In this document: positions 15,702 through 31,678 of the stretch, one piece after another | Position numbering within the stretch: the first letter of the stretch is position 1 | How the letters are laid out: every line of letters starts with the position of its first letter | Assembly (NCBI GenBank): GCA_963704755.1 | Contig: OY969938.1 | Span: 2,550,001 to 2,582,000 of the forward strand | DNA: 32,000 nt | Direction: 5' to 3' | From: an uncultured Chloroflexia bacterium | GTDB taxonomy: Bacteria > Chloroflexota > Anaerolineae > Anaerolineales > Anaerolineaceae | Notes under the pieces: model-generated | The model's input: the letters and a program-made list of their open reading frames with translations, nothing else | Told to the model about the DNA's origin: nothing | The model's database searches: none | Position numbers and translations under genes: made by a program

Positions 15702-17291
15702 ATGGAGACAGAACGACTGCGAGCGGTCGGGTACCGCAGGGTATCCATGCGCGAGCAGGTGGATGGCCATAGCCTGGACGCGCAGGCCAAGAACATTCAG
15801 GACTACGCGGCCGGGCAAGGTTGGGACTTACTGGAAATCTACACCGATGCCGGGATCTCGGCCAAGAAAGACAGCTACCGGCCGGACCTGGCCCGCCTGA
15901 TGCAGGATGCCGGGGAAGGCAAGTTCGACGTGGTCGTGGTGGATAAGATCGACCGTTTCTACCGCCACCTGGCCGGGCTGCTCTCTGCACTGGATGATCT
16001 GCGTCACATGAATGTGGCCTTTGCCTCGGTGCAGGAACGCCTGGATTTCACTTCACCCTGGGGAAAGCTCACCCTCACTGTACTGGGTATCCTGGCAGAG
16101 TTGTACCTGGATAACCTTCGCCAGGAGACGATCAAAGGCAAAAAGGAGCGTGCTCGCAAGGGCTTGTGGAACGGCCAGCCGCCCATCGGTTATTGTAAAG
16201 GGCTGTGCGCAGAGTGTGAGGACCCCAACGGCAAGGGCTACTGTCCCGACTACGGTCAAGCGGATAAGACCGATGGGAAACATTTGGTCGCCCACCCCAT
16301 CGACAGCCGGGTGGTCAGGCTGGTCTTTTCCTGGTACCTGGAAGGGACCGCGTCCGATGGCACCATTGCCGAGCGGCTCAACCAGTACAAAATGGAGCTG
16401 CCCAACGGCGAAAAAGTACAGGTACGCCAACGTGGCCACGTCGGTACAACCGGGGCTGGCCCATTCACGAAAGACGTGATCCGAGATATGCTCAACCGGG
16501 TTTTCTACACCGGTATGCTGCCCTACAAAACCTCTGCCGCTTTGGGAGCCCGGCGGACCCGCCGCAGCGAGTTGGCCACCGCCGAGTTGTTCAAAGGCCA
16601 GCACCCGGCCTTGATCAGCATGGAGGACTACAAAAAGGCTCAGGAAAAGCGCAAGATGCGCATGGTGGATCACAGCTCGCGCTGGCACACGCCGGCGCGG
16701 ATCTTCCCCTTGACCGGGCTTCTTTTCTGCGGCTACTGTGGTAGTCCGATGCGCGGTACCTCGACCATGGAGCGGCGCTATTACAGGGACGCGTCCAGCA
16801 TTGATAAGACATTGGATTGTTCGCAGCACACCTTGCGGGCCGACGTCCTGGAGGACCAGGCAGCCATCATCCTAAAAGAGATTCTGAAGAGTTGGGAAGA
16901 AAAGAACGCTTTGTCCGACCTGGAAAACGCGCAGCAAGATATGGAACAGCGTTTCGAGCGTGCCCGCGAGCTGTACCTGGAAGGCGATATTTCCCGCGAG
17001 CAGTTCCAGGCCGAAAAAGAGCAGTACGAGCATGCCAATGAGCGCTTGCACCACTCAAATGCGAATGTTATAATAACACTAGCCAGAACAATGAAGCCTA
17101 GTTTAGAGAACTGGGACAGCACCTTACCAATGGAACGGAAAAAGCTGCTACGGACGGCAATCCGAGCAGCCTTTGTCCGAGGCAACACCTTTGTGGCCCT
17201 ACAGACTACCGAGGTGTTTTGGCCTCTAACCGAAACTATTAGTTGTCAGTGCGGGGAGGGCGGGATTCGAACCCGCGGTCGAGGTTTATAG
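15702..17291 (+). CDS. Large serine recombinase (integrase type)
   Basis: 529 aa with AGGAGG before the ATG. Resolvase catalytic domain AVGYRRVSMREQVDGHSLDAQ...DAGISAKK...VVVVDKIDRFYR. Recombinase domain, zinc ribbon LLFCGYCGSPMRG, and a coiled-coil C-terminus. The last 13 codons (...CGEGGIRTRGRGL*) are read from the complement of tRNA-Ser(GCU). Confidence 0.9.
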   Translation: METERLRAVGYRRVSMREQVDGHSLDAQAKNIQDYAAGQGWDLLEIYTDAGISAKKDSYRPDLARLMQDAGEGKFDVVVVDKIDRFYRHLAGLLSALDDLRHMNVAFASVQERLDFTSPWGKLTLTVLGILAELYLDNLRQETIKGKKERARKGLWNGQPPIGYCKGLCAECEDPNGKGYCPDYGQADKTDGKHLVAHPIDSRVVRLVFSWYLEGTASDGTIAERLNQYKMELPNGEKVQVRQRGHVGTTGAGPFTKDVIRDMLNRVFYTGMLPYKTSAALGARRTRRSELATAELFKGQHPALISMEDYKKAQEKRKMRMVDHSSRWHTPARIFPLTGLLFCGYCGSPMRGTSTMERRYYRDASSIDKTLDCSQHTLRADVLEDQAAIILKEILKSWEEKNALSDLENAQQDMEQRFERARELYLEGDISREQFQAEKEQYEHANERLHHSNANVIITLARTMKPSLENWDSTLPMERKKLLRTAIRAAFVRGNTFVALQTTEVFWPLTETISCQCGEGGIRTRGRGL

Positions 17292-17580: not shown

Positions 17581-17738
17581 GACGACGGTTCCTTCTTGAC
17601 AGTGGATAAATCTGCAAATTTTCCTCCCCGTTTTGGCTTTCCTTCCTGCACCGTATCGCTATAATTTAAATTGTTGTGTTCTTTACAACCAGTCGTGGGG
17701 CGAATCCGTTGACTGGAAAATATCGCATGGGAGGAACA

Positions 17739-20700
17739 ATGGTCCACCATCACCGCGCCTGGAATGCAATTTTAGCTGCATTCCTAGTCATTGCTGCCGG
17801 GAATTTCATGGCGAGTCCCCTTACAGTCCTGGCGGATACAAGTGCTCAAACCCTTCCTTTTACTCAAGATTGGTCCAATGCCGATCTGATCACCACTGAC
17901 AACGAGTGGAGCGGTGTATCAGGTATTGTCGGCTATGCGGGAAACGGGCTTGTCTCGAGTTCTAATGTTAATCCCCAAACCATCCTGGCGGATGGGACCG
18001 GAACGCATATTAATGTAAAAGCCAACCGCAGCGACCCCGATTCGTTTTCAACCTACGGCGTTACTGAATTCGACGGGATTGCGAACCCGGCCATCGGCCT
18101 GGCAGGTGCCACCGGTTCGGCCGATGCTCCCTTCATTTTAATTAGCCTGGACACCAGCGGCTTCGAGAATATTCGCGTCCAATACAATGTCCGCGACCTG
18201 GACGCCAGCAACCGTAACACCACCCAGCAGGTTGCCCTGCACTACCGCGTCGGCGCAACCGGTAATTTCACCAATATTCCTGGGGGATATATCGCTGATG
18301 CCACCAGCCAAGACTCGGCTACCCAGGTTTTCTCCATCGACGAGGTGTTACCGGCAAATGCGGATGACCAATCCCTGGTTCAGGTGCGCATCCTGACGAG
18401 CAACGCCAATGGTACCGATGAATGGGTCGGTATCGACAACATCTCTATCACCGGCGACGAAATTATCTACGACGATGCGCCATCCGTCTCGGCAACCACT
18501 CCGGACGAAGATAGCCAGAATGTCGCTACCGGCGCGCCCCTGACGGTCACCTTCAGCGAACCGGTCACGCTTGCAGCCGGTTGGTTCACGCTGACCTGCG
18601 ACAGCACGGATATAGATGCAGCTTACTCCGGCAGCGACAGCAGCTACACCATCACGCCATCGTCCAGCCTGCCAACTGGGGCAGCCTGCACCTTGACCGT
18701 CCTGGCCGAAGGGGTCACGGACGTGGACGATGACGACCCACCCGATCACCTGGCCGCCGATTTCACCCTGGATTTCACCACCACCCCCTGCGGCGCCAAT
18801 TATACTGCCATCAACCAGGTCCAGGGCTCCGGCACAGCCAGCCTGCAGACCGGCAAGTCACCCACCCTGGAAGGAATTGTGACCGCCCGGTTCGATGGCG
18901 ACGATCAACTGGGCGGCTTTTTTCTGCAAAGCCTGGCGGAGGACGAAGATACAGACGAAGCCACCTCGGAGGGCATTTTCATCTACACCGGCGCAAACCC
19001 GCCGTACACATTTTCGGTAGGAGACGAAGTGCGTATCGCTGGGCAGGTGAAAGAATATGATAGCAGCGCCAGCGCCTTTGGCCAGATGGACCACATGACC
19101 GAGCTGGTGATGACCCCCACCGATGAGCACAGCCTGCTGGTCTGCTCGAGCGGCCATTCCGTGGCGGCGAAATCGATCAGCCTGCCGCTGCCCGATGACC
19201 CGAACACTTTCCTGGAACGGTACGAAGGCATGCTGGTGACCTTCACCGGCGGCGAAGACGGCCTGTATGTCCAGCAAAATGCCTATCAGGGCCGCTTCGG
19301 CCAGTTGACCGTGGCCGTCGCCGGGCTATACGCGCGGGTATTCAACCCAAACAACGTCAGTGACTCGGCTACAGCGGCAGAGAACCTCCAGCGCATTTTT
19401 GTTCTCGATGATGGCAGCAATTTACAGAACCCAACCCTGGTCCCATATTATGATATGGCCAATCCCCTGCGGGCCGGTGACCATATCGAGCCGGTCACCG
19501 GTGTGCTGGATCAAGGCAAAGTCAGTTCGACCTCAGTCAGTTCGGCAGATTTTGTCGATGGCTACCCCGATATCTTCTACCGGCTGCACCCCACTGCTGC
19601 GCCGCTCTTCACCCCGGCCAGCGCGCGGGCGGACCTGGCCACCCCACCCGATGTGGGCGGCGAGCTAAAAGTCGCCGGCTTCAATCTGCATAACTTCTTT
19701 ACCAGCCTGGATGACGGCTCAGCGCCTACCCCGCCTTATAACTCGGGCGCTACTCCGCGTGGCGCCGATACTGCCGCCGAACGCGAGCGCCAGTTGCAAA
19801 AGCTGGTCACCGCCATCAGCGCCTTAGACGCCGATGTACTCGGGCTGGTCGAAGTCGAGGCCTGGGAGGAAGCCGCTGCGCTGCCGGCCCTGGTCGATGC
19901 GCTCAACGATCACGCCGGCGCTCTGGTCTACACCGCCATCAGCTATCCGGATGGCTTTCCCCAGCCGCCCGAAGATGGCGACTTCATTAAAGTGGCCTTG
20001 ATCTACAAACACACCAGCGTCACTGCCCTTGGCAGCGCCAGGATCGATCCGGATCCGCTCAATTCACGCGTCCCCCTGGCGCAGACCTTCCGCTCCAAGG
20101 CCGATGGCGAGATCTTCTCGGTGATCGTCAACCACTTCAAGTCCAAAAGCGACTGCCCCAACCTCACAGACGACCCGCTCAACGTTGACCTGGGCCAGGG
20201 CTGCTGGAACGCGCTGCGCACCCAGCAGGCCGCGCAATTGTCGCATTTCGTCGATGCCGTTGTGGCCGCCTCAGGCGACCCGGACGTGCTGGTCATCGGT
20301 GACCTGAATGCTTACGGCGGCGAGGATCCGCTGGCGACCCTGACAGGCTACGGCCTGGTGGACCAGCTCGCCCGTTTCGTTCCGGCCGAGAGCCGCTACA
20401 GCTACATCTTCGACGGCCAGGCCGGCTACCTGGACCATGCCCTGGCGACGGCTAACCTGAGCGACCAGGTCAGCGGCGCGGCTTTCTGGCACATCAACGC
20501 CGACGAGCCGGCTTTTATCGATTTCGATCAGGATTACAACCCGGCCGGCTACTTCGACAGTGAGAGCCCCTTCCGCGCTTCTGACCACGACCCCACCCTG
20601 GCCGGGCTGACCCTGCAAAGTACTGCCCCAAGCCTGTCGGTCCAACCGCCTACGCTATCCGCCGGCAGGCTGGAATTTGCCCTGGAGGTGAACAACCCGC

Positions 20701-21056
20701 CCGACGGCTCGGCCATTCCCGAGGCATTTTATACATTGAAGTTTACTGCCACCAGCCTGGCCGAAGTGATGGCGGTTGAATTTTACGACCCTGCCACAAG
20801 CGCCTGGACCCCGGTCGGGCTTGAGGCGAGTGAGGAAAATGTAATCGCGAGTATCGATCCGGAATGCGCCGGCTTATTCCCGGCCAACCATAATGTTACG
20901 GCAAGGTTTCGGGTAACCCTGGCGCACCCGGCCAGCTACAACATCAGCTTCTACCTGAGCAACTCTTCGCTGGCCGGCGGCCCGGTCCTGTCCGAGGTCA
21001 CGGCCTCTGCAAAGGAAGATGAATTTCTCGTGTTTTTACCCGTGGTCATATACTAA
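17739..21056 (+). CDS. Secreted ExeM/NucH-like extracellular nuclease (endonuclease/exonuclease/phosphatase fold) with N-terminal accessory domains
   Basis: The preferred start is ATG 17739 (GGGAGGA upstream), which gives the signal peptide MVHHHRAWNAILAAFLVIAAGNFMASPLTVLA. There is an Ig-like block DDAPSVSATTPDEDSQNVATGAPLTVTFSEPV. The ...YTAINQVQGSG...GIVTARF...GGFFLQ segment is typical of ExeM/NucH proteins. EEP motifs are LKVAGFNLHNFF and ...FRASDHDP. The track start at 17676 adds 21 unlikely residues. Confidence 0.8.
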   Translation: MVHHHRAWNAILAAFLVIAAGNFMASPLTVLADTSAQTLPFTQDWSNADLITTDNEWSGVSGIVGYAGNGLVSSSNVNPQTILADGTGTHINVKANRSDPDSFSTYGVTEFDGIANPAIGLAGATGSADAPFILISLDTSGFENIRVQYNVRDLDASNRNTTQQVALHYRVGATGNFTNIPGGYIADATSQDSATQVFSIDEVLPANADDQSLVQVRILTSNANGTDEWVGIDNISITGDEIIYDDAPSVSATTPDEDSQNVATGAPLTVTFSEPVTLAAGWFTLTCDSTDIDAAYSGSDSSYTITPSSSLPTGAACTLTVLAEGVTDVDDDDPPDHLAADFTLDFTTTPCGANYTAINQVQGSGTASLQTGKSPTLEGIVTARFDGDDQLGGFFLQSLAEDEDTDEATSEGIFIYTGANPPYTFSVGDEVRIAGQVKEYDSSASAFGQMDHMTELVMTPTDEHSLLVCSSGHSVAAKSISLPLPDDPNTFLERYEGMLVTFTGGEDGLYVQQNAYQGRFGQLTVAVAGLYARVFNPNNVSDSATAAENLQRIFVLDDGSNLQNPTLVPYYDMANPLRAGDHIEPVTGVLDQGKVSSTSVSSADFVDGYPDIFYRLHPTAAPLFTPASARADLATPPDVGGELKVAGFNLHNFFTSLDDGSAPTPPYNSGATPRGADTAAERERQLQKLVTAISALDADVLGLVEVEAWEEAAALPALVDALNDHAGALVYTAISYPDGFPQPPEDGDFIKVALIYKHTSVTALGSARIDPDPLNSRVPLAQTFRSKADGEIFSVIVNHFKSKSDCPNLTDDPLNVDLGQGCWNALRTQQAAQLSHFVDAVVAASGDPDVLVIGDLNAYGGEDPLATLTGYGLVDQLARFVPAESRYSYIFDGQAGYLDHALATANLSDQVSGAAFWHINADEPAFIDFDQDYNPAGYFDSESPFRASDHDPTLAGLTLQSTAPSLSVQPPTLSAGRLEFALEVNNPPDGSAIPEAFYTLKFTATSLAEVMAVEFYDPATSAWTPVGLEASEENVIASIDPECAGLFPANHNVTARFRVTLAHPASYNISFYLSNSSLAGGPVLSEVTASAKEDEFLVFLPVVIY

Positions 21057-25372: not shown

Positions 25373-25457
25373 CTGTAATTGCCCAACCAAACGGGTTAGA
25401 ACCTCGAATTTGATATGTTTGCGCGGGCTTTGACCGCGCAAACATATCAAATTCGAG
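25373..25457 (+). repeat. Module-plus-hairpin unit U2
   Basis: CTGTAA (25373-78), 17 nt, then TTAGAA (25396-401). A perfect 24-bp stem follows, 25403-25426 pairing with 25434-25457 (ctcgaatttgatatgtttgcgcgg gctttga ccgcgcaaacatatcaaattcgag). Confidence 0.8.
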
Positions 25458-25689: not shown

Positions 25690-26817
25690 ATGAAAGCAAC
25701 TGTCATGCAGCAGCAACTTGCCCATGGTTTAGGGATCGTTTCGCGCGCTGTCTCTCCCCGAAGTACGCTGCCTGTCCTGGCTAACATTCTGGTAGCGACA
25801 GACGAAGGCCGGCTGCGCCTCTCGGCGACGAACCTGGAATTGGGAACTACTTGCTGGATCCCCGCTCAAATCAACGAAGAAGGAGCCGTGACCGTTCCGG
25901 CGCGCACCTTCACCGACCTGGTCAGCGCCCTTCCGTCGGACAACGTCCAGCTCACATTGAATACCCGTACGCAAACGCTGAATGTGCGCTGCGGCTCCAA
26001 CAGTACCGATATCAAAGGCATCGACGCGCAGGAATTTCCTCCCATCCCGGTGCCGGATCTGAATGAGGGCGTCAGCCTGAACGTGTCGGACTTCAAAGAG
26101 ATGATCCAACAGGTGGTGTTCGCCTCATCCACCGACGAAGCCCGGCCTGTGCTCCAGGGCGTGTTGATGACCATCAACGAAAGCGAAGTGACCCTGGCAG
26201 CCACCGACGGCTTCCGCATTTCGGTGCGTAAAGCCAACCTGGCCAACCCGGTGAACCAGAATGTCTCGGTGATCATCCCGGCCCGGGCCTTGAGCGAGCT
26301 GGCCCGTATCGCAGCCGACGGCGACGAAACACTGACCATGAATGTGCCCGCCGGCCGCGGGCAGGTTATCTTCCACCTGCGCGACGCCGAGCTGGTTTCA
26401 CAGTTGATCGACGGCAACTTCCCGCCTTACCAGGCGATCATCCCGCGCTCGTCCAAGACCCACACGGTAATCTCCACGGCAGCCCTGTTGAAAGCCTGCA
26501 AACAGGCCGAAATCATCGCCCGTGAAGGCAACAACGTGATTCGCCTGAACGTGCTCTCCCAGGGGGACGAACCGGGTGTGGTCGAAATCTCGGCCCAATC
26601 CGAGGAAACCGGCACCAGCGATATCAAAGTGGACGCCAATGTGGACGGGCCGGCCCTGCTGATTGCCTTCAACGTCAAGTTCCTGCGCGAGGTCCTGGAC
26701 GTGGTCAAGACCCCCTCGGTGGTGCTGGAGGTCAACCAGAACAACACCCCGGCCACCCTGCGCCCCATCGGCGACGAAAATTTCGTGCACGTCATCATGC
26801 CCATGCATTTGGGTTAA
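25690..26817 (+). CDS. dnaN: DNA polymerase III beta sliding clamp
   Basis: 375 aa. MKATVMQQQLAHGLGIVSRAVSPRSTLPVLANILVATDEGRLRLSATNLELG... and a C-terminal ...RPIGDENFVHVIMPMHLG are typical of DnaN across three clamp domains. Confidence 0.92.
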   Translation: MKATVMQQQLAHGLGIVSRAVSPRSTLPVLANILVATDEGRLRLSATNLELGTTCWIPAQINEEGAVTVPARTFTDLVSALPSDNVQLTLNTRTQTLNVRCGSNSTDIKGIDAQEFPPIPVPDLNEGVSLNVSDFKEMIQQVVFASSTDEARPVLQGVLMTINESEVTLAATDGFRISVRKANLANPVNQNVSVIIPARALSELARIAADGDETLTMNVPAGRGQVIFHLRDAELVSQLIDGNFPPYQAIIPRSSKTHTVISTAALLKACKQAEIIAREGNNVIRLNVLSQGDEPGVVEISAQSEETGTSDIKVDANVDGPALLIAFNVKFLREVLDVVKTPSVVLEVNQNNTPATLRPIGDENFVHVIMPMHLG

Positions 26818-26827
26818 ATTTTTGAAA

Positions 26828-26913
26828 TTTTGTAACTACTCAGGCACGTGCAAGAATTAACCGAATTTGAGAGGTTTGCGAGGGCAAAGCCCTCGCAAAC
26901 CTCTCAAATTCGG
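26828..26913 (+). repeat. Module-plus-hairpin unit downstream of dnaN
   Basis: TTGTAA (26830-35), 16 nt, then AAGAAT (26852-57). A 25-bp stem follows, 26861-26885 pairing with 26889-26913 (ccgaatttgagaggtttgcgagggc aaa gccctcgcaaacctctcaaattcgg). Confidence 0.8.
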
Positions 26914-26954
26914 AGTTTTTACCCCTTGGGCTTGGGCAGTTACGAATTTTTTTT

Positions 26955-26998
26955 GAGGGTCAGGCGGGTGCTTCACACCCGCCTGACCCTCATTTTTT
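26955..26998 (+). terminator. Rho-independent terminator (plus strand)
   Basis: A 16-bp GC-rich stem, gagggtcaggcgggtg cttca cacccgcctgaccctc, followed by aTTTTTT (26993-26998). It would terminate dnaN and/or a transcript starting at the 26828 unit. Confidence 0.8.
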
Positions 26999-27024: not shown

Positions 27025-27087
27025 AAAGTATGTTGATGATATTTTTTCGCGGGTTTCACCCGCGAAAAAATATCATCAACATACTTT
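27025..27087. repeat. Perfect 29-bp hairpin overlapping the stop codon of the last zinc-ribbon gene
   Basis: aaagtatgttgatgatattttttcgcggg tttca cccgcgaaaaaatatcatcaacatacttt, with arms 27025-27053 and 27059-27087. The core TTTTTCGCGGG...CCCGCGAAAAA is related to the hairpins at 8616 and 25325. The TAA stop at 27088..27086 lies in the right arm. Confidence 0.8.
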
Positions 27088-27628
27088 AAGGCAGAATCCA
27101 AAGCTGGGCTTCGCCCAGGGTCAATTTGAATTGCAGTGTTTTGAGCGCGTCGCGCCGGTCGGCCTCGATGCCCAGCAGGATAAATTCGGCCAGCGGGCGC
27201 ACGTCCCCGGCCGGCACGGTGACCGGCAGAAAGGCGGCCCGGCTGCCCTCTTCCAGCGGCGTGGGCTGGGTTAAGAGCTGGGTGCCCAGGCTGACCACGT
27301 CTTGCAGCGGCAAGGCGTAAGCTGGCACGAAGAATCGCCGGGGCGCCTGCCAGAAATCCTGCATCGCGCGGGTCTGATCGCCGGTATACGTCTCTCGCTG
27401 GAGTACAGCGCTGCCTTCCGCAACCCAGAACGGCCGCCCTTGCGCTCCGGCCGGGATGTGTTTGGAAAAGAAAACGCTGATTGCCTGCAGGTCGCCGCTT
27501 TCCAGTAAAAGCTGCCCCTGCCCGCAGGTTTCGCACACCCAGGCGACTTCATCCGCCTGGGCAGGGATAGCGGCCTGGCATTGCACGCACTGCAACGGCG
27601 CCAGGTGAATAGAGACTGTCTCGCTCAA
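27086..27628 (-). CDS. Zinc-ribbon protein C of the triad (soluble, 180 aa), function unknown
   Basis: The TTG start at 27628..27626 overlaps the upstream TGA (cTTTGA) and has GGAG 7 nt upstream. N-terminal CxxC-x14-CxxC (LQCVQCQAAIPAQADEVAWVCETCGQ). The track ORF 27086..28009 is an over-extension that overlaps protein B. Confidence 0.65.
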   Translation of the reverse strand: MSETVSIHLAPLQCVQCQAAIPAQADEVAWVCETCGQGQLLLESGDLQAISVFFSKHIPAGAQGRPFWVAEGSAVLQRETYTGDQTRAMQDFWQAPRRFFVPAYALPLQDVVSLGTQLLTQPTPLEEGSRAAFLPVTVPAGDVRPLAEFILLGIEADRRDALKTLQFKLTLGEAQLWILP

Positions 27629-28668
27629 AGTTCTTTCTCCAAAGAACGCACGATTTCGATGATCTCGCCGGCCGAACCGGGCAGGTTCAGGGCAAAGTCT
27701 GATTTCTCCTTGTAGCGCAGGTATTCGTAATGTTCCCCGTAGCGATAACGCCGCCAACCCAGCAGCATCAGGGCGATCCCGGCCACAAAGGCGATGGCCG
27801 CACCGCCCAGGGCGTTGTTGCTGTTCGAATTCACCAGGATCGATCCGGCCACGGTCACCGCCAGGATCGAGCCGCCCATCATGCCCCCCACCAGCACCAG
27901 GGCGCGGAAAAAGACGTTGCCCGGCGCTTTGCCGTACAAAACTTCGCCGGTGTAGCCATCCACCACCACCTGGAAAGAGCGCCCGCGGAACAGGTAACGC
28001 ACCACCCACAGCGGATAATAAACCAGCCCCAGGTGCGGGCGGACGATGCGCACAAACGTCTGGGCGATTTTGTCGAGTTTGGACTTGGCGCGGACGTTGT
28101 CTTCGAAGGTTTGTTTGGCCGCCTCGAGCGATTGCTCGGCGGAACCGACCGGCTCGAACACCATCCCACTGTGGTGCAGCGCGGCGGCGTCGAACGGCTC
28201 CAGGGGCCGCCCGCTCAAATTGACCGTCCGCACGCCGAACTCACCTACGTCACAGGCGGCGTTGTTCCAGGTCATGTCCTCGGCCACGTGCACTTCCCGC
28301 GCTTCGTAATGGCGGTTGTCGCCGCTGCCGACCTCTTTTTGGCCGAAGACCCAGGCCAGGGCCCGGCCCCAGGCCGTCCAGAAAGGCAGGTGGACCAGCA
28401 TGACCTCATCCACTTTGGCCTGGCGGGCCACGGTCGAGCCGATGGCCATGCTGCTGTGCAGGAAGCCCTGGTAGGCCTTGACGGCCTGCTCGCGCTGGAC
28501 GCGTTGGGGCACCTGGTAGCGGCGGACGCCGCGCTCACCCGGCTTGCCTTTGACGATCGAGCGCAGGTCGCAATACGGGCAGGTCACGATGGCCTGTCCT
28601 TCAGGGATAGGGACCATACCGCCGCAGCGTGGGCAGCTCAACCCGTGCAATGCCTGTGAATCGCTCAT
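27625..28668 (-). CDS. Zinc-ribbon protein B of the triad (347 aa, two C-terminal TM helices), function unknown
   Basis: The ATG at 28668 overlaps the stop of protein A (ATGA). MSDSQALHGLSCPRCGGMVPIPEGQAIVTCPYCD zinc ribbon. The motif GLVYYPLWVVRYLFRGRSFQVVVDGYTGEVLYGKAPGN is followed by two hydrophobic helices and a charged tail. The track start at 28803 lies inside protein A. Confidence 0.75.
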   Translation of the reverse strand: MSDSQALHGLSCPRCGGMVPIPEGQAIVTCPYCDLRSIVKGKPGERGVRRYQVPQRVQREQAVKAYQGFLHSSMAIGSTVARQAKVDEVMLVHLPFWTAWGRALAWVFGQKEVGSGDNRHYEAREVHVAEDMTWNNAACDVGEFGVRTVNLSGRPLEPFDAAALHHSGMVFEPVGSAEQSLEAAKQTFEDNVRAKSKLDKIAQTFVRIVRPHLGLVYYPLWVVRYLFRGRSFQVVVDGYTGEVLYGKAPGNVFFRALVLVGGMMGGSILAVTVAGSILVNSNSNNALGGAAIAFVAGIALMLLGWRRYRYGEHYEYLRYKEKSDFALNLPGSAGEIIEIVRSLEKEL

Positions 28669-29465
28669 ACTCTGGATGCCACCCAGGCGGCTACCCCTAC
28701 CAGGATCGGGGCAGCGATAATGCCGATCAGGATCGCGATTCCGATCCAGAGCGTGTTGGTCTCCCTGCCGCTGCTGGCAATGACCGGGATGAGCGCCAGG
28801 CACAGGTATACCAGCGCGGTGATCCCGGCGGCGGCCAGGTAAGGCGCCTCCGCTTTGGCCGGGAATATATTGGCCAAGACCGTGCCCGAGGAACCCTCGA
28901 CCACGGCGGTGTAGGTGTTGGCCTTGTAGATATATTTAAAAATAAAGATTGGGACGTGCACCAGGGCGCTCTCACGCACGTCGCCGGCCGGATTGCGCTG
29001 CCCCAGCCATTCCAGGGCCGCGTCCAACGGCACGCTGGGAGCGGCCGCCTGCTGCTCGATACTGCTGTCGTACTGCTCCAGGTCCCCGGCAGGGATCGAA
29101 AGGTGTTTCAGCTCGGTCACCGAGGTGGCCGCAGCCGGTTCCATGTCGATACGCTCGGGTGCGCCTTGCACACCCGACTTGAAGAACCACAATGGAAAAT
29201 ATTGGAAAGTACAGCCGGCGATCTGTGACTTCTGGTCCAGGTCTTTAATCGTCGCCGACCCCGACATCCAGCGTGCCAGGGCAGCCTCGGCTTCGGGCTG
29301 GTCCATGGTTGGCTTCAGGTACCAGTGGAAAACGACTCTGGATTTATCCAGATAAACAGTCGCGCCGCAGAACGGACAGGTGACGAAGATCTCCCCCTCG
29401 TCAGGATGCAATTCACCGCCGCATTGGGTACAGGTCAATTGAGTAGCCGGGCTCTCCACTGCCAT
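28665..29465 (-). CDS. Zinc-ribbon protein A of the triad (266 aa, two C-terminal TM helices), function unknown
   Basis: MAVESPATQLTCTQCGGELHPDEGEIFVTCPFCG zinc ribbon. The motif ALVHVPIFIFKYIYKANTYTAVVEGSSGTVLANIFPAK is followed by two hydrophobic helices. It is clearly paralogous to protein B. Confidence 0.75.
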   Translation of the reverse strand: MAVESPATQLTCTQCGGELHPDEGEIFVTCPFCGATVYLDKSRVVFHWYLKPTMDQPEAEAALARWMSGSATIKDLDQKSQIAGCTFQYFPLWFFKSGVQGAPERIDMEPAAATSVTELKHLSIPAGDLEQYDSSIEQQAAAPSVPLDAALEWLGQRNPAGDVRESALVHVPIFIFKYIYKANTYTAVVEGSSGTVLANIFPAKAEAPYLAAAGITALVYLCLALIPVIASSGRETNTLWIGIAILIGIIAAPILVGVAAWVASRV

Positions 29466-29471
29466 GGAGAA

Positions 29472-29477
29472 ATTATA
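29472..29477 (-). promoter_or_regulatory. TATAAT box 6 nt upstream of the protein A start codon (possible leaderless mRNA)
   Basis: The minus strand reads gcTATAATttctccATGGCA. There is no SD, and the -10 hexamer is so close that transcription would start at or next to the ATG. No convincing -35 was found. Confidence 0.3.
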
Positions 29478-29716
29478 GCATGTTCGTACTTTGGATGGTA
29501 TTGCTCAGCATCCGCAAAATTTTAATTTCCGAACTGGCCTGAGTAGTAACTTCAGGAACTTATTTAATTTGGCATAATTATTGCTACCTTTAGGGCAACT
29601 GCGTTTCAGCAAGATTACCCGTTTTATTGGAGCTTTATCCCTTTCAAATCTGAATATTCACAAGCCAGAAGAATCTATTTATACTTGATCTGCGCGACTA
29701 GACAATGAAGAAAGAT

Positions 29717-29814: not shown

Positions 29815-30981
29815 ATGAAAACTCGTAAATACTGGCTGCGATTTGCCACCCTGACCGTCACGATTTTGGCCGCGTTAGCAACTGCTGCAGGCGTTTTTGC
29901 CTCTGAAGGCGCGCCGGATGGCAACCAACAGCAGGCCACACCGGGCGCCGGTACGTCGGCCGGGCTCAATGCCAATTCTGTTTTGTATCTGCCGGTCGTA
30001 TCGAGTATGCAGGCTCCGGCGCCGTCCGCTCCGCAGAGCTATTACATCCAAAACAACGACCCTTCGGTGATGTGGAGCCTGGGCTGTTCGCTGGGCGAAC
30101 ACGACCAGCAAACCCCCGGCAAACAGGACAGCCTGGTCATCTTGAATTTTGGCCAGATGTGGACCCAGAGTGGGACGCCCGGGGTCTACTCCTATGGGGA
30201 TTGGGTCTCTATGGGCGGCCTGCAAGACGCGGTAAAAAGTTATGTAGAGGGCTATTACCAATGTTCAGGCAGCGACGACACGTCCTATCTGACCCTGGGG
30301 ATAGGCACCAATAACTATGGCACGTTTGGCACCGGCAGCAGCAGCCAATCCGTCTTGAGTGAAAATGCCTACGCCTACGGCCAGCGCTGGGCCACCCTGG
30401 TCAATGCAGTCAATACCTGGAGTGCCCAGAAAGGCTATTACCAGCAGGTCTTTGTCACCGGCGCCATCGATATCGAGTGGGGCGGTACCTATTGGAATTC
30501 GGCCAGGGTCACTCGTTCCTGGGTAGATGGGTTTAAAAACAACAGTGGATTAATCTATTTCAATTTTGGCGCCTGCGCCGGCTGCTGGACCAGCAACGCC
30601 AAGGATTGGTCGTATGACTATCCATTTACGGATGCCTGGACCACGGACGACGTCTGGTATGTTTCCTGGGGATCGGTTGCGGGGAACGCTGTTCCGGAAA
30701 TTTACAGTAATAACGGCACCCTGGCCCGCCAGTGGCAGGCGATCAGCAAGTACGCAGCCCAATACAAAGGCGGACGGATCGATTTCACCGGCCCGATGAC
30801 CCAATATCAGGCTTGCTTGCAACAATGGGATCCTGTTACAAAAAAGGGCGATTCTTCGTGTGAGACGCTGGACAACACACCCGAAGAAGGCTGGCAGCAG
30901 CTTTACGACGCATTGAATGCCGATAAGGACACGGCTCAATCGCTGGATTACGTGACCGATATCGGCTGGCAGGAGAATTAA
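29815..30981 (+). CDS. Secreted hypothetical protein (388 aa)
   Basis: Signal peptide MKTRKYWLRFATLTVTILAALATAAGVFA. The mature part is rich in W, Y and G, with no motif I can assign from memory. Confidence 0.7.
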   Translation: MKTRKYWLRFATLTVTILAALATAAGVFASEGAPDGNQQQATPGAGTSAGLNANSVLYLPVVSSMQAPAPSAPQSYYIQNNDPSVMWSLGCSLGEHDQQTPGKQDSLVILNFGQMWTQSGTPGVYSYGDWVSMGGLQDAVKSYVEGYYQCSGSDDTSYLTLGIGTNNYGTFGTGSSSQSVLSENAYAYGQRWATLVNAVNTWSAQKGYYQQVFVTGAIDIEWGGTYWNSARVTRSWVDGFKNNSGLIYFNFGACAGCWTSNAKDWSYDYPFTDAWTTDDVWYVSWGSVAGNAVPEIYSNNGTLARQWQAISKYAAQYKGGRIDFTGPMTQYQACLQQWDPVTKKGDSSCETLDNTPEEGWQQLYDALNADKDTAQSLDYVTDIGWQEN

Positions 30982-30991
30982 GGAAAAGACT

Positions 30992-31678
30992 ATGAAAAAA
31001 CGTCCTGTCTGGATCATGATCGGCGGAATTGCCCTGGTAGTGGCTTTGGTGGTGGGCTCCCGCCTGGCGATTGGGGCCAGTTTACCCTCCGGGCCGGCCT
31101 GGCTGACGAACGACATTCAGGAGTACAGCCAGACCCTGACCGCCAATCCCAATCCCACCCAGGCTGCGCTGCTTTCACAAAAATTAAACCTGCTCGAACA
31201 GGCGAACCCGAACCAGATCAAAGGGGTGGAAGGCGAGTCAGCCAAGGCAGCTAACCCGTGTGACCTGATGCCCACCGCGCGACCCCAGGTGCAGTCCGAC
31301 CGGGTGGAGGGCATCCTGGAGGGCCTGCTGGCGCCGATCAACCCTAGCAGCTTCAGCGGGACAAACCAGTGGCAGGGCTACGTCAACGACCAGTGGACGG
31401 TGGTCTATGCCGGCGCCGATGGGCAGAATTTGCAACAGGGCCTGCTGTGGGTAGATGTTGAAAGCACCGGTGAGTTTGACAGCTACCCGGCGGCCCAGCC
31501 CGGCGGTGCGCTGACCATCCTTTCGGCCGAGAATAATGTCCTGCTCCTCTCGGATGAATCCGGCGATACGCTTTACTTCGACATGGCCGCGCGCAGCTAC
31601 CTCAGCGTCCCGGACCAGTCCCTGCCGACCCTGGAGCCCCAACCTACCCTCACCCCCACTCCGTCGATCTGCGGATAG
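30992..31678 (+). CDS. Membrane-anchored or secreted hypothetical protein (228 aa)
   Basis: N-terminal anchor MKKRPVWIMIGGIALVVALVVGSRLA. It starts 10 nt after the previous stop, with AAGGA upstream, so it is probably co-transcribed. Confidence 0.7.
   Translation: MKKRPVWIMIGGIALVVALVVGSRLAIGASLPSGPAWLTNDIQEYSQTLTANPNPTQAALLSQKLNLLEQANPNQIKGVEGESAKAANPCDLMPTARPQVQSDRVEGILEGLLAPINPSSFSGTNQWQGYVNDQWTVVYAGADGQNLQQGLLWVDVESTGEFDSYPAAQPGGALTILSAENNVLLLSDESGDTLYFDMAARSYLSVPDQSLPTLEPQPTLTPTPSICG

Follow-up and report, generated by a model that had tools for sequence, protein, structure and literature searches.

YdjG (SamG) is a genetically important and mechanistically opaque part of the membrane-stress machinery of Bacillus. 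The B. subtilis protein, encoded in the pspA-ydjGHI (samGHI) operon, has been described as having a pair of zinc ribbons, an NTF2-like domain related to YpeB and one TM segment (Ravi et al. 2024, PMC11237479), and a TFIIB-type ribbon has been noted in it (Popp et al., PMC9239133). It interacts with YdjH, and the mutants have shape defects under alkaline shock; deletion of ydjG or ydjH abolishes the membrane foci of both YdjI and PspA (PMC8581546; bioRxiv 10.64898/2026.02.06.704340). Peptidoglycan synthesis is misplaced under stress when ydjG or ydjH is mutated, but not in mutants of ydjI or pspA (PMC8581546). PspA and SPFH oligomers are also tethered or regulated by small integral membrane proteins of the PspB/PspC and NfeD types (PMC8581546; bioRxiv 10.64898/2026.02.06.704340), and the resemblance of these to the proteins described here is an analogy of role only, with no relationship in sequence or fold detected. 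For the YdjG/SamG core, no model was present in Pfam or NCBIfam and no solved structure was found with PDB sequence profiles or Foldseek. The window analysed here, a stretch of DNA of 32,000 nucleotides, contains three minus-strand genes, A, B and C (Table 1), whose products are, as judged from profile comparisons, remote homologs of B. subtilis YdjG/SamG.

Gene organisation and protein architecture

The stop codon of A and the start codon of B are joined in an ATGA, and those of B and C in a TTGA at 27628-27625 (misprinted as 28628-27625 in the initial annotation). The initial annotation had described the triad as paralogous zinc-ribbon genes, translationally coupled through these overlaps. 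The overlaps were confirmed and proved to be kept in many loci: of 75 loci, A and B overlapped by 4 nt in 38, and B and C overlapped in 62. No SD was found before the ATG of A. Of 85 loci, 70 had a TGnTATAAT 4-9 nt upstream of the start of A and 2 had an SD-like motif; this recurrence supports the leaderless mRNA suggested earlier, so that the A-B-C mRNA probably starts at the extended -10 element. A simple sigma-70 scan misses the element because the -35 hexamer is poor. Co-expression of the three genes is backed by the conserved junction overlaps together with the conserved placement of the predicted leaderless promoter. Downstream, dnaN (25690-26817, + strand) is convergent with the triad, with hairpins in between. 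Its vicinity had been taken as a clue to function, and a linkage was rejected, given the convergent orientation and the lack of this adjacency in the other loci examined.

Table 1. Features of the triad locus, with positions given in the window
Feature	Position	Strand	Description
Gene A	28665..29465	-	266 aa, ATG start; zinc ribbon, short alpha/beta core of the YdjG type and, at the C-terminus, a two-helix TM hairpin
Zinc ribbon of A	29367..29432	-	C12-x2-C15 ... C30-x2-C33; cysteines invariant in 50 relatives
Gene B	27625..28668	-	347 aa, ATG start; zinc ribbon, full YdjG-like core with insertion, two TM helices and basic/acidic tail (predicted cytoplasmic)
Zinc ribbon of B	28570..28635	-	C12, C15, C30, C33; all four kept without exception even at 21-51% identity (alignment A4)
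TM hairpin of B	27751..27915	-	Residues about 252-306; loop NSNSNNALG uncharged, both flanks K/R-rich
Gene C	27086..27628	-	180 aa, TTG start; zinc ribbon and truncated YdjG-like core ending at the 'LW' strand; no TM, predicted soluble
Extended -10 TGcTATAAT	29472..29480	-	TATAAT 29477-29472, TG 29480-29479; 6 nt short of the ATG of A; read from the sequence
Perfect palindrome, 30-bp arms	27025..27087		Overlaps the stop codon of C; terminator-like, marks the operon end
GC-rich hairpin, 17-bp stem and T-run	26954..26992		Between the convergent dnaN and the triad

A CxxC-x14-CxxC pattern was present in A, B and C alike, with the cysteines of C at C14/C17/C32/C35. The N-terminal zinc ribbons reported in the initial annotation were confirmed in all three proteins, the spacing being x14 throughout, and in family alignments of 50 sequences the ribbon cysteines of A, B and C showed little or no variation. 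The resemblance extended beyond the ribbons. A and B matched each other in BLASTP (E 4e-9), and the A-family and B-family profiles aligned over their whole length (hhalign 99.1%, E 6e-19). C aligned with the B family over 168 columns (hhalign 96.7%, E 3.5e-10; diverse profiles A6 and A4), and the faint blocks pointed out earlier in C (RPFWVAEG, FFVPAY) sit in aligned columns of this comparison. By these alignments A, B and C are paralogs, C being a truncated one.

Hydropathy analysis placed hydrophobic segments at residues 207-233 and 236-266 of A and at 252-279 and 284-306 of B, and none in C. The AF2 model of B (pLDDT 82, pTM 0.70) contained helices at 252-280 and 285-310, and that of C was globular (pLDDT 94.7). 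The earlier description of two C-terminal hydrophobic helices in A and B and none in C was in agreement with hydropathy and, for B, with the AF2 model. From the positive-inside rule, given the uncharged loop and K/R-rich flanks of the hairpin, we infer an N-in/C-in topology for B.

Relationship to YdjG/SamG and to other families

The YdjG reference was encoded in a ydjG-ydjH-ydjI locus (L092) on a metagenome contig, which was found via a published ydjG primer sequence (PMC8581546). A profile of diverse B-type sequences (A4) matched this B. subtilis-type YdjG over 260 columns, corresponding to YdjG 52-335, with an hhalign probability of 98.8% (E 1.1e-16). The A1 profile matched with 96.8%, and the A-family profile (A2) with 95.9% in its N-terminal part. 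In hmmsearch, full-length YdjG scored 75.8 bits; the YdjG core (85-312), stripped of ribbons and TM, scored 40.1 bits, compared with a maximum of 3.8 in 600 shuffles. The match of C to the YdjG core was indirect, via the B family. Identity to YdjG was low, at about 17-19% in the hhalign alignments.

The triad proteins share with YdjG an N-terminal C4 zinc ribbon, the second ribbon of YdjG being the one that aligns with theirs, and the same alpha+beta core with a conserved 'PFW' strand and a 'YPxW..Y.....DG.TG.V.G..P' hairpin. A C-terminal membrane anchor is likewise common to YdjG, A and B, the bulk of the protein being probably cytoplasmic. In contrast, YdjG has two ribbons and one TM segment and is encoded by a single gene, whereas the triad consists of three paralogs with one ribbon each, of which A and B have a two-helix anchor and C is predicted to be soluble, truncated and devoid of the C-terminal anchor. 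The function may have diverged from that of YdjG.

The initial annotation had assigned the three proteins to no characterised family. This held for Pfam, NCBIfam, PADLOC, PDB profiles and Foldseek against the PDB, where nothing was matched beyond the ribbon, but not for the profile comparison with YdjG/SamG. Calling the triad an undescribed system was therefore too strong, because its members can be placed in a family that has already been studied. A confident profile match to a characterised family, which the initial annotation had named as grounds for refuting its reading, was thus obtained by half, with genetic and localisation data available for YdjG. Searches of Pfam and NCBIfam with A, B, C and 51 close and 48 diverse relatives returned only sub-threshold ribbon and PepSY matches. 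PDB sequence-profile searches with four alignments retrieved only generic zinc-ribbon proteins. Foldseek searches of the PDB gave no match with E < 0.05 for the model of B or C, and no PepSY match; the C model had a local match to a LysW-like ribbon only. Arrestin-like and pore-toxin entries in the Foldseek PDB output were discarded as noise (probability ≤ 0.11, TM < 0.2). In BFVD, Foldseek found two significant giant-virus matches (E 1e-7), both named 'DnaJ-like subfamily C member 3'. Matches in PHROGs were at the level of the ribbon only, and the family pattern, run against IMG/VR, revealed no viral relative. In JGI labels, some relatives were termed 'RNA-binding Zn-ribbon' and one was YkoI-like.

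Conservation and genomic neighbourhood

The family was found in 328 species genomes and comprises about 2,000 clusters at 50% identity, from Chloroflexota, Bacillota and methanogenic archaea. The best 80 loci all belonged to one class (Anaerolineae, Chloroflexota), had the triad once per locus, at 47-61% identity. The order A-B-C was found in 80 of 80 Anaerolineae loci on contigs long enough to show it, and remained fixed while the flanks varied. The same order, with the same three orthologous types, recurred in Methanocorpusculum, a Bacillota MAG and three further contigs, and Methanofollis had four tandem paralogs. A fixed paralog array, outside Bacillus usually of two anchored proteins and one soluble protein, was encountered in all nine individually read non-Bacillus organisms or contigs in addition to the 80 scanned Anaerolineae loci. 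The gene-neighbourhood survey proposed in the initial annotation accordingly indicated that the triad is conserved as a unit, in the Anaerolineae and in distant taxa.

In two distant loci (L088 and L091), the triad was located directly 3' of a YdjI-type gene on the same strand, encoding Band_7_1 and a C-terminal zinc ribbon, the architecture of YdjI; this SPFH-ZnR linkage is a further likeness to YdjG. The partners of YdjG, which are the TPM protein YdjH (unrelated to YdjG itself), YdjI and PspA, were found neither in the window nor beside Anaerolineae triads. Specifically, a YdjI-type SPFH gene was absent from the window and, in the 80 Anaerolineae loci, from the 6-kb vicinity of the triad, the large ORFs scanned in the window gave no Pfam match to PspA or TPM, and none of the triad loci examined showed a TPM or PspA gene. 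In the Anaerolineae lineage, the genes of the proposed clients thus do not lie close to the triad. Among the Anaerolineae neighbours, a two-HKD PLD/Nuc-like protein was the most frequent, with 46 of 79 loci. The single example read carried a lipoprotein-type signal peptide, and the protein is therefore probably extracytoplasmic and fits poorly with a simple model of cytoplasmic clients; as a cytoplasmic client it was rejected. Other recurrent envelope-gene neighbours were MurJ and LPG_synthase_TM, in 10 loci each.

Proposed function and alternatives

We hypothesize, with a confidence somewhat above even, that A, B and C form a heteromeric docking or sensing platform on the cytoplasmic side of the membrane, with a role in its maintenance and in the response to envelope stress. 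A single mRNA, probably leaderless, would encode the three proteins, and the stop/start overlaps point to coupled translation. A and B would be held in the membrane by their C-terminal two-helix hairpins, which would place ribbon and core on the cytoplasmic face. C is without the final beta-hairpin and the anchor and is therefore predicted to be soluble; binding to A, to B or to both probably keeps it at the membrane. The resulting complex would lie just beneath the membrane, docking or sensing. The model for this arrangement is B. subtilis YdjG: without it and YdjH, the SPFH protein YdjI and, through YdjI, the ESCRT-III-like PspA are not brought to the membrane. Recruitment of SPFH proteins or PspA by the triad may be expected by analogy with B. 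subtilis YdjG, and the identity of the clients in Anaerolineae is likewise something we infer. Possible, though on the improbable side, is a variant in which the triad, and not the single YdjG of B. subtilis, represents the ancestral and widespread form of the family, an ancient module of Bacteria and Archaea. Its two anchored paralogs and its soluble one would build a defined hetero-oligomer beneath the membrane that senses or remodels the membrane by itself, with no need of PspA or SPFH proteins. The triad would then be an as yet undescribed machine for membrane maintenance, and its homologs may extend to giant viruses.

Other explanations were weighed against the docking platform. The triad could be a housekeeping organiser of envelope or cell-wall synthesis that operates without SPFH or PspA, for example by positioning the machinery that makes peptidoglycan or lipids in these filamentous bacteria. 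We regard this as unlikely, although the misplaced peptidoglycan synthesis in ydjG and ydjH but not ydjI and pspA mutants (PMC8581546), the occurrence in 328 species genomes with the best 80 loci all from Anaerolineae, the recurrence of MurJ, LPG_synthase_TM and PLD-like neighbours and the lack of SPFH genes near Anaerolineae triads would all agree with it. However, the neighbours vary, and their recurrence may reflect shared ancestry inside one class. The triad is also found in Methanomicrobiales, archaea that are not known to have murein. More improbable still is that the proteins are membrane-tethered nucleic-acid-binding or signalling factors, with ribbons that bind DNA or RNA as part of a membrane-sequestered regulator. 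The ribbons resembled those of RpoP, TFIIB, aS21-type proteins and LysW at weak E-values, the JGI label of some relatives and the TFIIB-type ribbon of YdjG (PMC9239133) point in the same direction, and dnaN adjoins the operon in the window. Every one of these ribbon matches was nevertheless under the curated cut-offs and generic among C4 ribbons, neither an HTH nor any further nucleic-acid-binding domain was found, and the convergent dnaN is not a conserved neighbour. The presence of a ribbon in YdjI as well fits better with ribbon-ribbon contacts between proteins.

An anti-phage or abortive-infection system of membrane effectors is very improbable in our estimate. Small operons of unannotated membrane proteins would suit such a role, the window also contains type I-C cas genes, the Methanofollis array adjoins a ParE toxin and an N6 methylase, and beta-pore-forming toxins appeared in the Foldseek PDB lists with non-significant scores. 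However, the cas genes are 20 kb from the triad in a region of lower GC, none of A, B and C was matched in PADLOC at E ≤ 1, tblastn found no relatives in plasmids, and the search of phages yielded one doubtful, unannotated 4.9-kb record. With one copy per locus, a fixed order and the identity seen across the 80 loci, the triad also lacks the patchy distribution of defence genes. The same searches, the number of species genomes and the fixed gene order amid varying flanks make a housekeeping or envelope role, which the initial annotation had rated at least as likely as defence, the more likely of the two. The initial annotation had also recorded an impression of PepSY-like hairpins. PepSY (PF03413) matched B at residues 180-244 with 17.1 bits (E 0.007), below the cut-off of 24, and was sub-threshold in 11 of 51 relatives (best E 2.8e-4); these matches and the YpeB-related core of YdjG (PMC11237479) are consistent with the impression, while the scores remain under the Pfam cut-off. 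The likeness to PepSY and YpeB consists of a helix packed on a curved antiparallel sheet ending in a 'DG.TG.V' turn. Classical PepSY domains are generally extracytoplasmic, whereas the triad core is predicted to be cytoplasmic. That, as in YpeB, the core is itself an extracytoplasmic PepSY-type domain that regulates a germination-type enzyme or secreted protease we consider hardly credible, even with the YkoI-like relative and the frequent PLD-family neighbour, a secreted lipoprotein in the example read. Signal peptides were absent, C has no export signal of any kind, and a cytoplasmic core is indicated by the C4 ribbon at the N-terminus, by the TM hairpin at the other end and by the positive-inside pattern.

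The comparison presented here extends the YdjG/SamG family far beyond Bacillus and adds a three-gene set that is conserved in bacteria and archaea and has never been studied. The fixed paralog arrays lead to the hypothesis that the working unit is a hetero-oligomer, and the relatives provide new sequence diversity for structure prediction of the family. If the triad is indeed a self-contained scaffold beneath the membrane, it would help to explain how soluble proteins that protect the membrane, such as SPFH and ESCRT-III/PspA, are targeted, including in phyla without PspB/C and in archaea.

Gene organisation, paralogy and expression of the triad

ORF listing and translation confirmed the three consecutive minus-strand genes described in the initial annotation, with overlapping stop and start codons at the A–B (ATGA) and B–C (TTGA) junctions. 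A GGAG motif was located approximately 10 nt upstream of the C start. All three proteins carried the expected N-terminal zinc ribbon (CxxC-x14-CxxC). A simple hydropathy scan also reproduced the two C-terminal hydrophobic segments of A (207–233 and 236–266) and B (252–279 and 284–306), and found none in C. Since the inter-helix loop of B was uncharged and the flanks on both sides were K/R-rich, the positive-inside rule predicts an N-in/C-in topology for B, with the ribbon and core in the cytoplasm. The AF2 model of B was confident (pLDDT 82, pTM 0.70) and consisted of the ribbon, a helix, two very long strands, an insertion, a helix, three strands and two TM helices. The model of C was globular and also confident (pLDDT 94.7, pTM 0.88). 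The GC content of the operon (0.58–0.59) was similar to that of neighbouring genes, in agreement with the core-genome-like composition noted initially.

The suspected paralogy of A and B was substantiated by BLASTP (E 4e-9) and by hhalign with family profiles of 50 sequences each (99.1%, E 6e-19), in a full-length alignment that took in the anchors. C, noted initially for its weaker versions of the shared blocks, matched B at only 74.9% with close profiles, but at 96.7% (E 3.5e-10, 168 columns) with diverse alignments. In the latter, C aligned through the ribbon, both the 'PFW' and 'PA' strands and a helix. As judged from these profiles, A, B and C are all paralogs and C, because its alignment stops at the 'LW' strand, is a truncated paralog without an anchor.

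In the window, 6 nt separated the motif TGcTATAAT (29480–29472) from the start codon of A, and gene A lacked a Shine–Dalgarno (SD) sequence. Among 85 loci examined, 70 had an extended -10 box ending 4–9 nt before the A start and two an SD-like motif. This comparison supports leaderless expression of the triad, as had been suggested from the window.

Downstream of C, a palindrome and a GC-rich hairpin were followed by the convergent dnaN. dnaN is therefore outside the triad unit, and its adjacency, once taken as a clue to function, was discarded. Three long perfect palindromes (arms of 24–30 bp) surrounded dnaN, at 25403–25457, 26861–26913 and 27025–27087. The first two had the core CGAATTTGAnAnGTTTGCG in common and look like members of a REP/MITE-like repeat family. 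Divergent from the triad, two plus-strand genes (29815–31678; 388 and 228 aa) encoded hydrophobic signal-like N-termini, with no Pfam match for either. Elsewhere in the window, the cas region had a lower GC content (0.46–0.49) than the remainder (0.52–0.65), and Cas3 appears to be split over two overlapping ORFs. The serine recombinase and the large protein after it may mark the edge of an integrated element.

Coordinates of features in the window and in related loci (L numbers)
Feature	Locus	Position	Strand	Remarks
Gene A	window	29465..28665	minus	266 aa, ATG start
Gene B	window	28668..27625	minus	347 aa, ATG start, overlaps A stop
Gene C	window	27628..27086	minus	180 aa, TTG start, overlaps B stop
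Perfect palindrome	window	27025-27087		30-bp arms, overlaps C stop codon at downstream end of C
GC-rich hairpin	window	26954-26992		between palindrome 27025-27087 and dnaN
Type I-C CRISPR-Cas operon, part	window	691-6933	minus	
Cas8c/Csd1	window	691-2625	minus	
Cas5d	window	2627-3358	minus	
Unannotated ORF in cas operon	window	3366-3971	minus	201 aa
Cas3 helicase part	window	4089-4964	minus	
Cas3 HD part	window	4940-5920	minus	
WYL/WCX regulator	window	5947-6933	minus	
Large serine recombinase	window	15702-17291		Resolvase + Recombinase + Zn_ribbon_recom
Big_5 + endonuclease/exonuclease/phosphatase protein	window	17676-21056		1126 aa, after serine recombinase
Helical ORF	L088	4717-5226		~170 aa, precedes YdjI-like SPFH gene upstream of triad
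Helical ORF	L091	4729-5244		~170 aa, precedes YdjI-like SPFH gene upstream of triad
PLD/Nuc-like protein	L030	7568-8704		~378 aa, lipobox-like signal LTSGC
Four tandem YdjG-like paralogs, Methanofollis sp. W23	L086	6681-11430		403, 406, 366 and 285 aa

Relationship to YdjG/SamG

Pfam and NCBIfam returned only sub-threshold matches, to ribbons and to PepSY, PADLOC no match, PDB sequence profiles only generic ribbons, and Foldseek against the PDB nothing for the B and C models. To this extent the statement that no characterised family could be assigned held, as none of these resources placed the core; it did not hold with respect to YdjG. The lead to YdjG came from the gene context in two loci, L088 and L091, where the triad came directly after a co-oriented helical ORF and the gene of a Band_7_1 (SPFH) protein that ends in a zinc ribbon, the architecture of Bacillus subtilis YdjI. 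The two helical ORFs shared 34% identity, had no Pfam match and may represent a further component of the YdjI-linked operon version. A presumed motif likeness between the triad and YdjG was used as a lead only. The B. subtilis genes are ordered pspA-ydjG-ydjH-ydjI; the ydjG product is a membrane protein whose N-terminus bears a ribbon (PMC8581546, PMC9239133).

The YdjG sequence for comparison was taken from a ydjGHI locus pulled from metagenome contigs with a published ydjG primer sequence as DNA pattern. The B-type profile (A4) matched it at 98.8% (hhalign, E 1.1e-16); the 260 aligned columns began at the second ribbon and reached the TM segment. Two further triad-family profiles, A1 and the A-family profile A2, matched at 96.8% and 95.9%. 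With hmmsearch, full-length YdjG scored 75.8 bits and its core without ribbons and TM segment 40.1 bits, against a maximum of 3.8 bits for 600 shuffled controls. By these comparisons, the triad proteins are members of a family in which one protein has been partly characterised, and hence are not a categorically new system. The YdjG core has been described as YpeB-related and NTF2-like (Ravi et al., PMC11237479); the helix-plus-curved-sheet repeats predicted here fit this description, as do the weak PepSY signal and the earlier impression of a PepSY-like ending.

Foldseek of the B model against BFVD yielded two giant-virus proteins, A0A5K0UBJ7 (Yasminevirus) and A0A3G4ZSZ8 (Edafosvirus), with E 1e-7 and probability 1.0 over 250–330 columns, at TM-scores of only 0.3–0.4. 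Both are named 'DnaJ-like subfamily C member 3'. YdjG-like proteins in Klosneuvirinae are possible on these models; an IMG/VR pattern scan found no viral relative.

Conservation and distribution of the triad

Homolog searches gave >1,000 B-type, approximately 1,000 A-type and approximately 400 C-type clusters (90% identity). Almost all were of Anaerolineae/Chloroflexota origin, and almost all bore the name 'hypothetical'. A scan in which each species was represented by a single genome found the family in 328 genomes. The best 80 loci of these were Anaerolineae throughout; in all whose contig was long enough, profile HMMs placed A, B and C co-oriented and in this order. Of 75 loci, 38 had A and B overlapping by 4 nt, and 62 had an overlap of B and C. 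When 1.8 billion representatives were searched exhaustively by profile, 2,037 clusters were recovered (E ≤ 1e-3), including Methanofollis, Methanocorpusculum and Bacillota MAG proteins. The same three orthologous types (approximately 240–270, 313–335 and 158–198 aa) also occurred in the Bacillota MAG (L088), Methanocorpusculum (L089) and contigs L090, L091 and L094. The neighbourhood survey thus bore out the treatment of the three genes as a unit.

Tandem paralog arrays, such as that of Methanofollis sp. W23, are a hallmark of the family, and mainly for this reason we infer that A, B and C work as a hetero-oligomer. The Methanofollis array adjoined a ParE/antitoxin pair; its last paralog lacked the zinc ribbon, as did the third as called. 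Two Anaerolineae loci had an additional weak B-profile match (44–48 bits) upstream of the triad (L053, 3716–5140; L059, 3217–4140), which may be a fourth divergent paralog.

Proposed function and alternatives

Membrane foci of YdjI and PspA form in B. subtilis only when both ydjG and ydjH are present; the YdjG and YdjH proteins interact, and mutants of either gene misplace wall synthesis under alkaline shock (PMC8581546). In a later preprint, SamG–SamH was proposed to sense stress as a membrane module that SamI restrains (bioRxiv 10.64898/2026.02.06.704340). Based on the homology to YdjG and on two distant triad loci linked to a YdjI-type gene, we propose that A and B would pair at the cytoplasmic face of the membrane, to which both are anchored, with C as a soluble third subunit, and that the complex would dock or sense membrane-maintenance factors. 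This model is weakened by three observations. No YdjI-type gene was found within 6 kb of the triad in the 80 Anaerolineae loci or in the window, and no PspA or TPM match among the scanned window ORFs. The commonest Anaerolineae neighbour was a two-HKD PLD/Nuc-like protein, directly downstream of C on the same strand (46/79 loci). The example from L030 had a signal of lipoprotein type and was closest to Nuc endonuclease (1byr) and mitochondrial cardiolipin hydrolase; the gene was absent from the triad locus in the window. Some PspA/band-7 operons also hold HKD hydrolases (Ravi et al., PMC11237479).

In Anaerolinea thermolimosa and relatives (L001–L003), the triad was immediately preceded by two or three HSP20 genes in tandem. 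Downstream of the PLD-like gene, L001 and L002 had a PadR regulator and a MacB-type ABC transporter; L003 had the transporter, with no PadR called. In Methanocorpusculum (L089), a PspC-domain gene (2665–2922) was located approximately 3.4 kb upstream on the same strand with unrelated genes between, a proximity that may be coincidence.

The strongest alternative, which overlaps with the docking or sensing model, is that the triad organises envelope synthesis without SPFH or PspA. Nucleic acid binding by the ribbons found no support beyond generic ribbon similarity, and an extracytoplasmic PepSY role of the core conflicts with the predicted topology. A defence system is unlikely, given the lack of a PADLOC match or plasmid relative, a single dubious record as phage relative, and the wide occurrence within one class in fixed gene order; a housekeeping or envelope role is the likelier of the two.

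The literature searched contained no description of the three-paralog module as such, nor of its soluble truncated member, the two-helix anchors, the conserved leaderless expression from overlapping genes, or the distribution over Chloroflexota, Bacillota and methanogenic archaea. The main use of the finding is that it broadens a membrane-stress component of which little is understood and points to a hetero-oligomer as its working unit.
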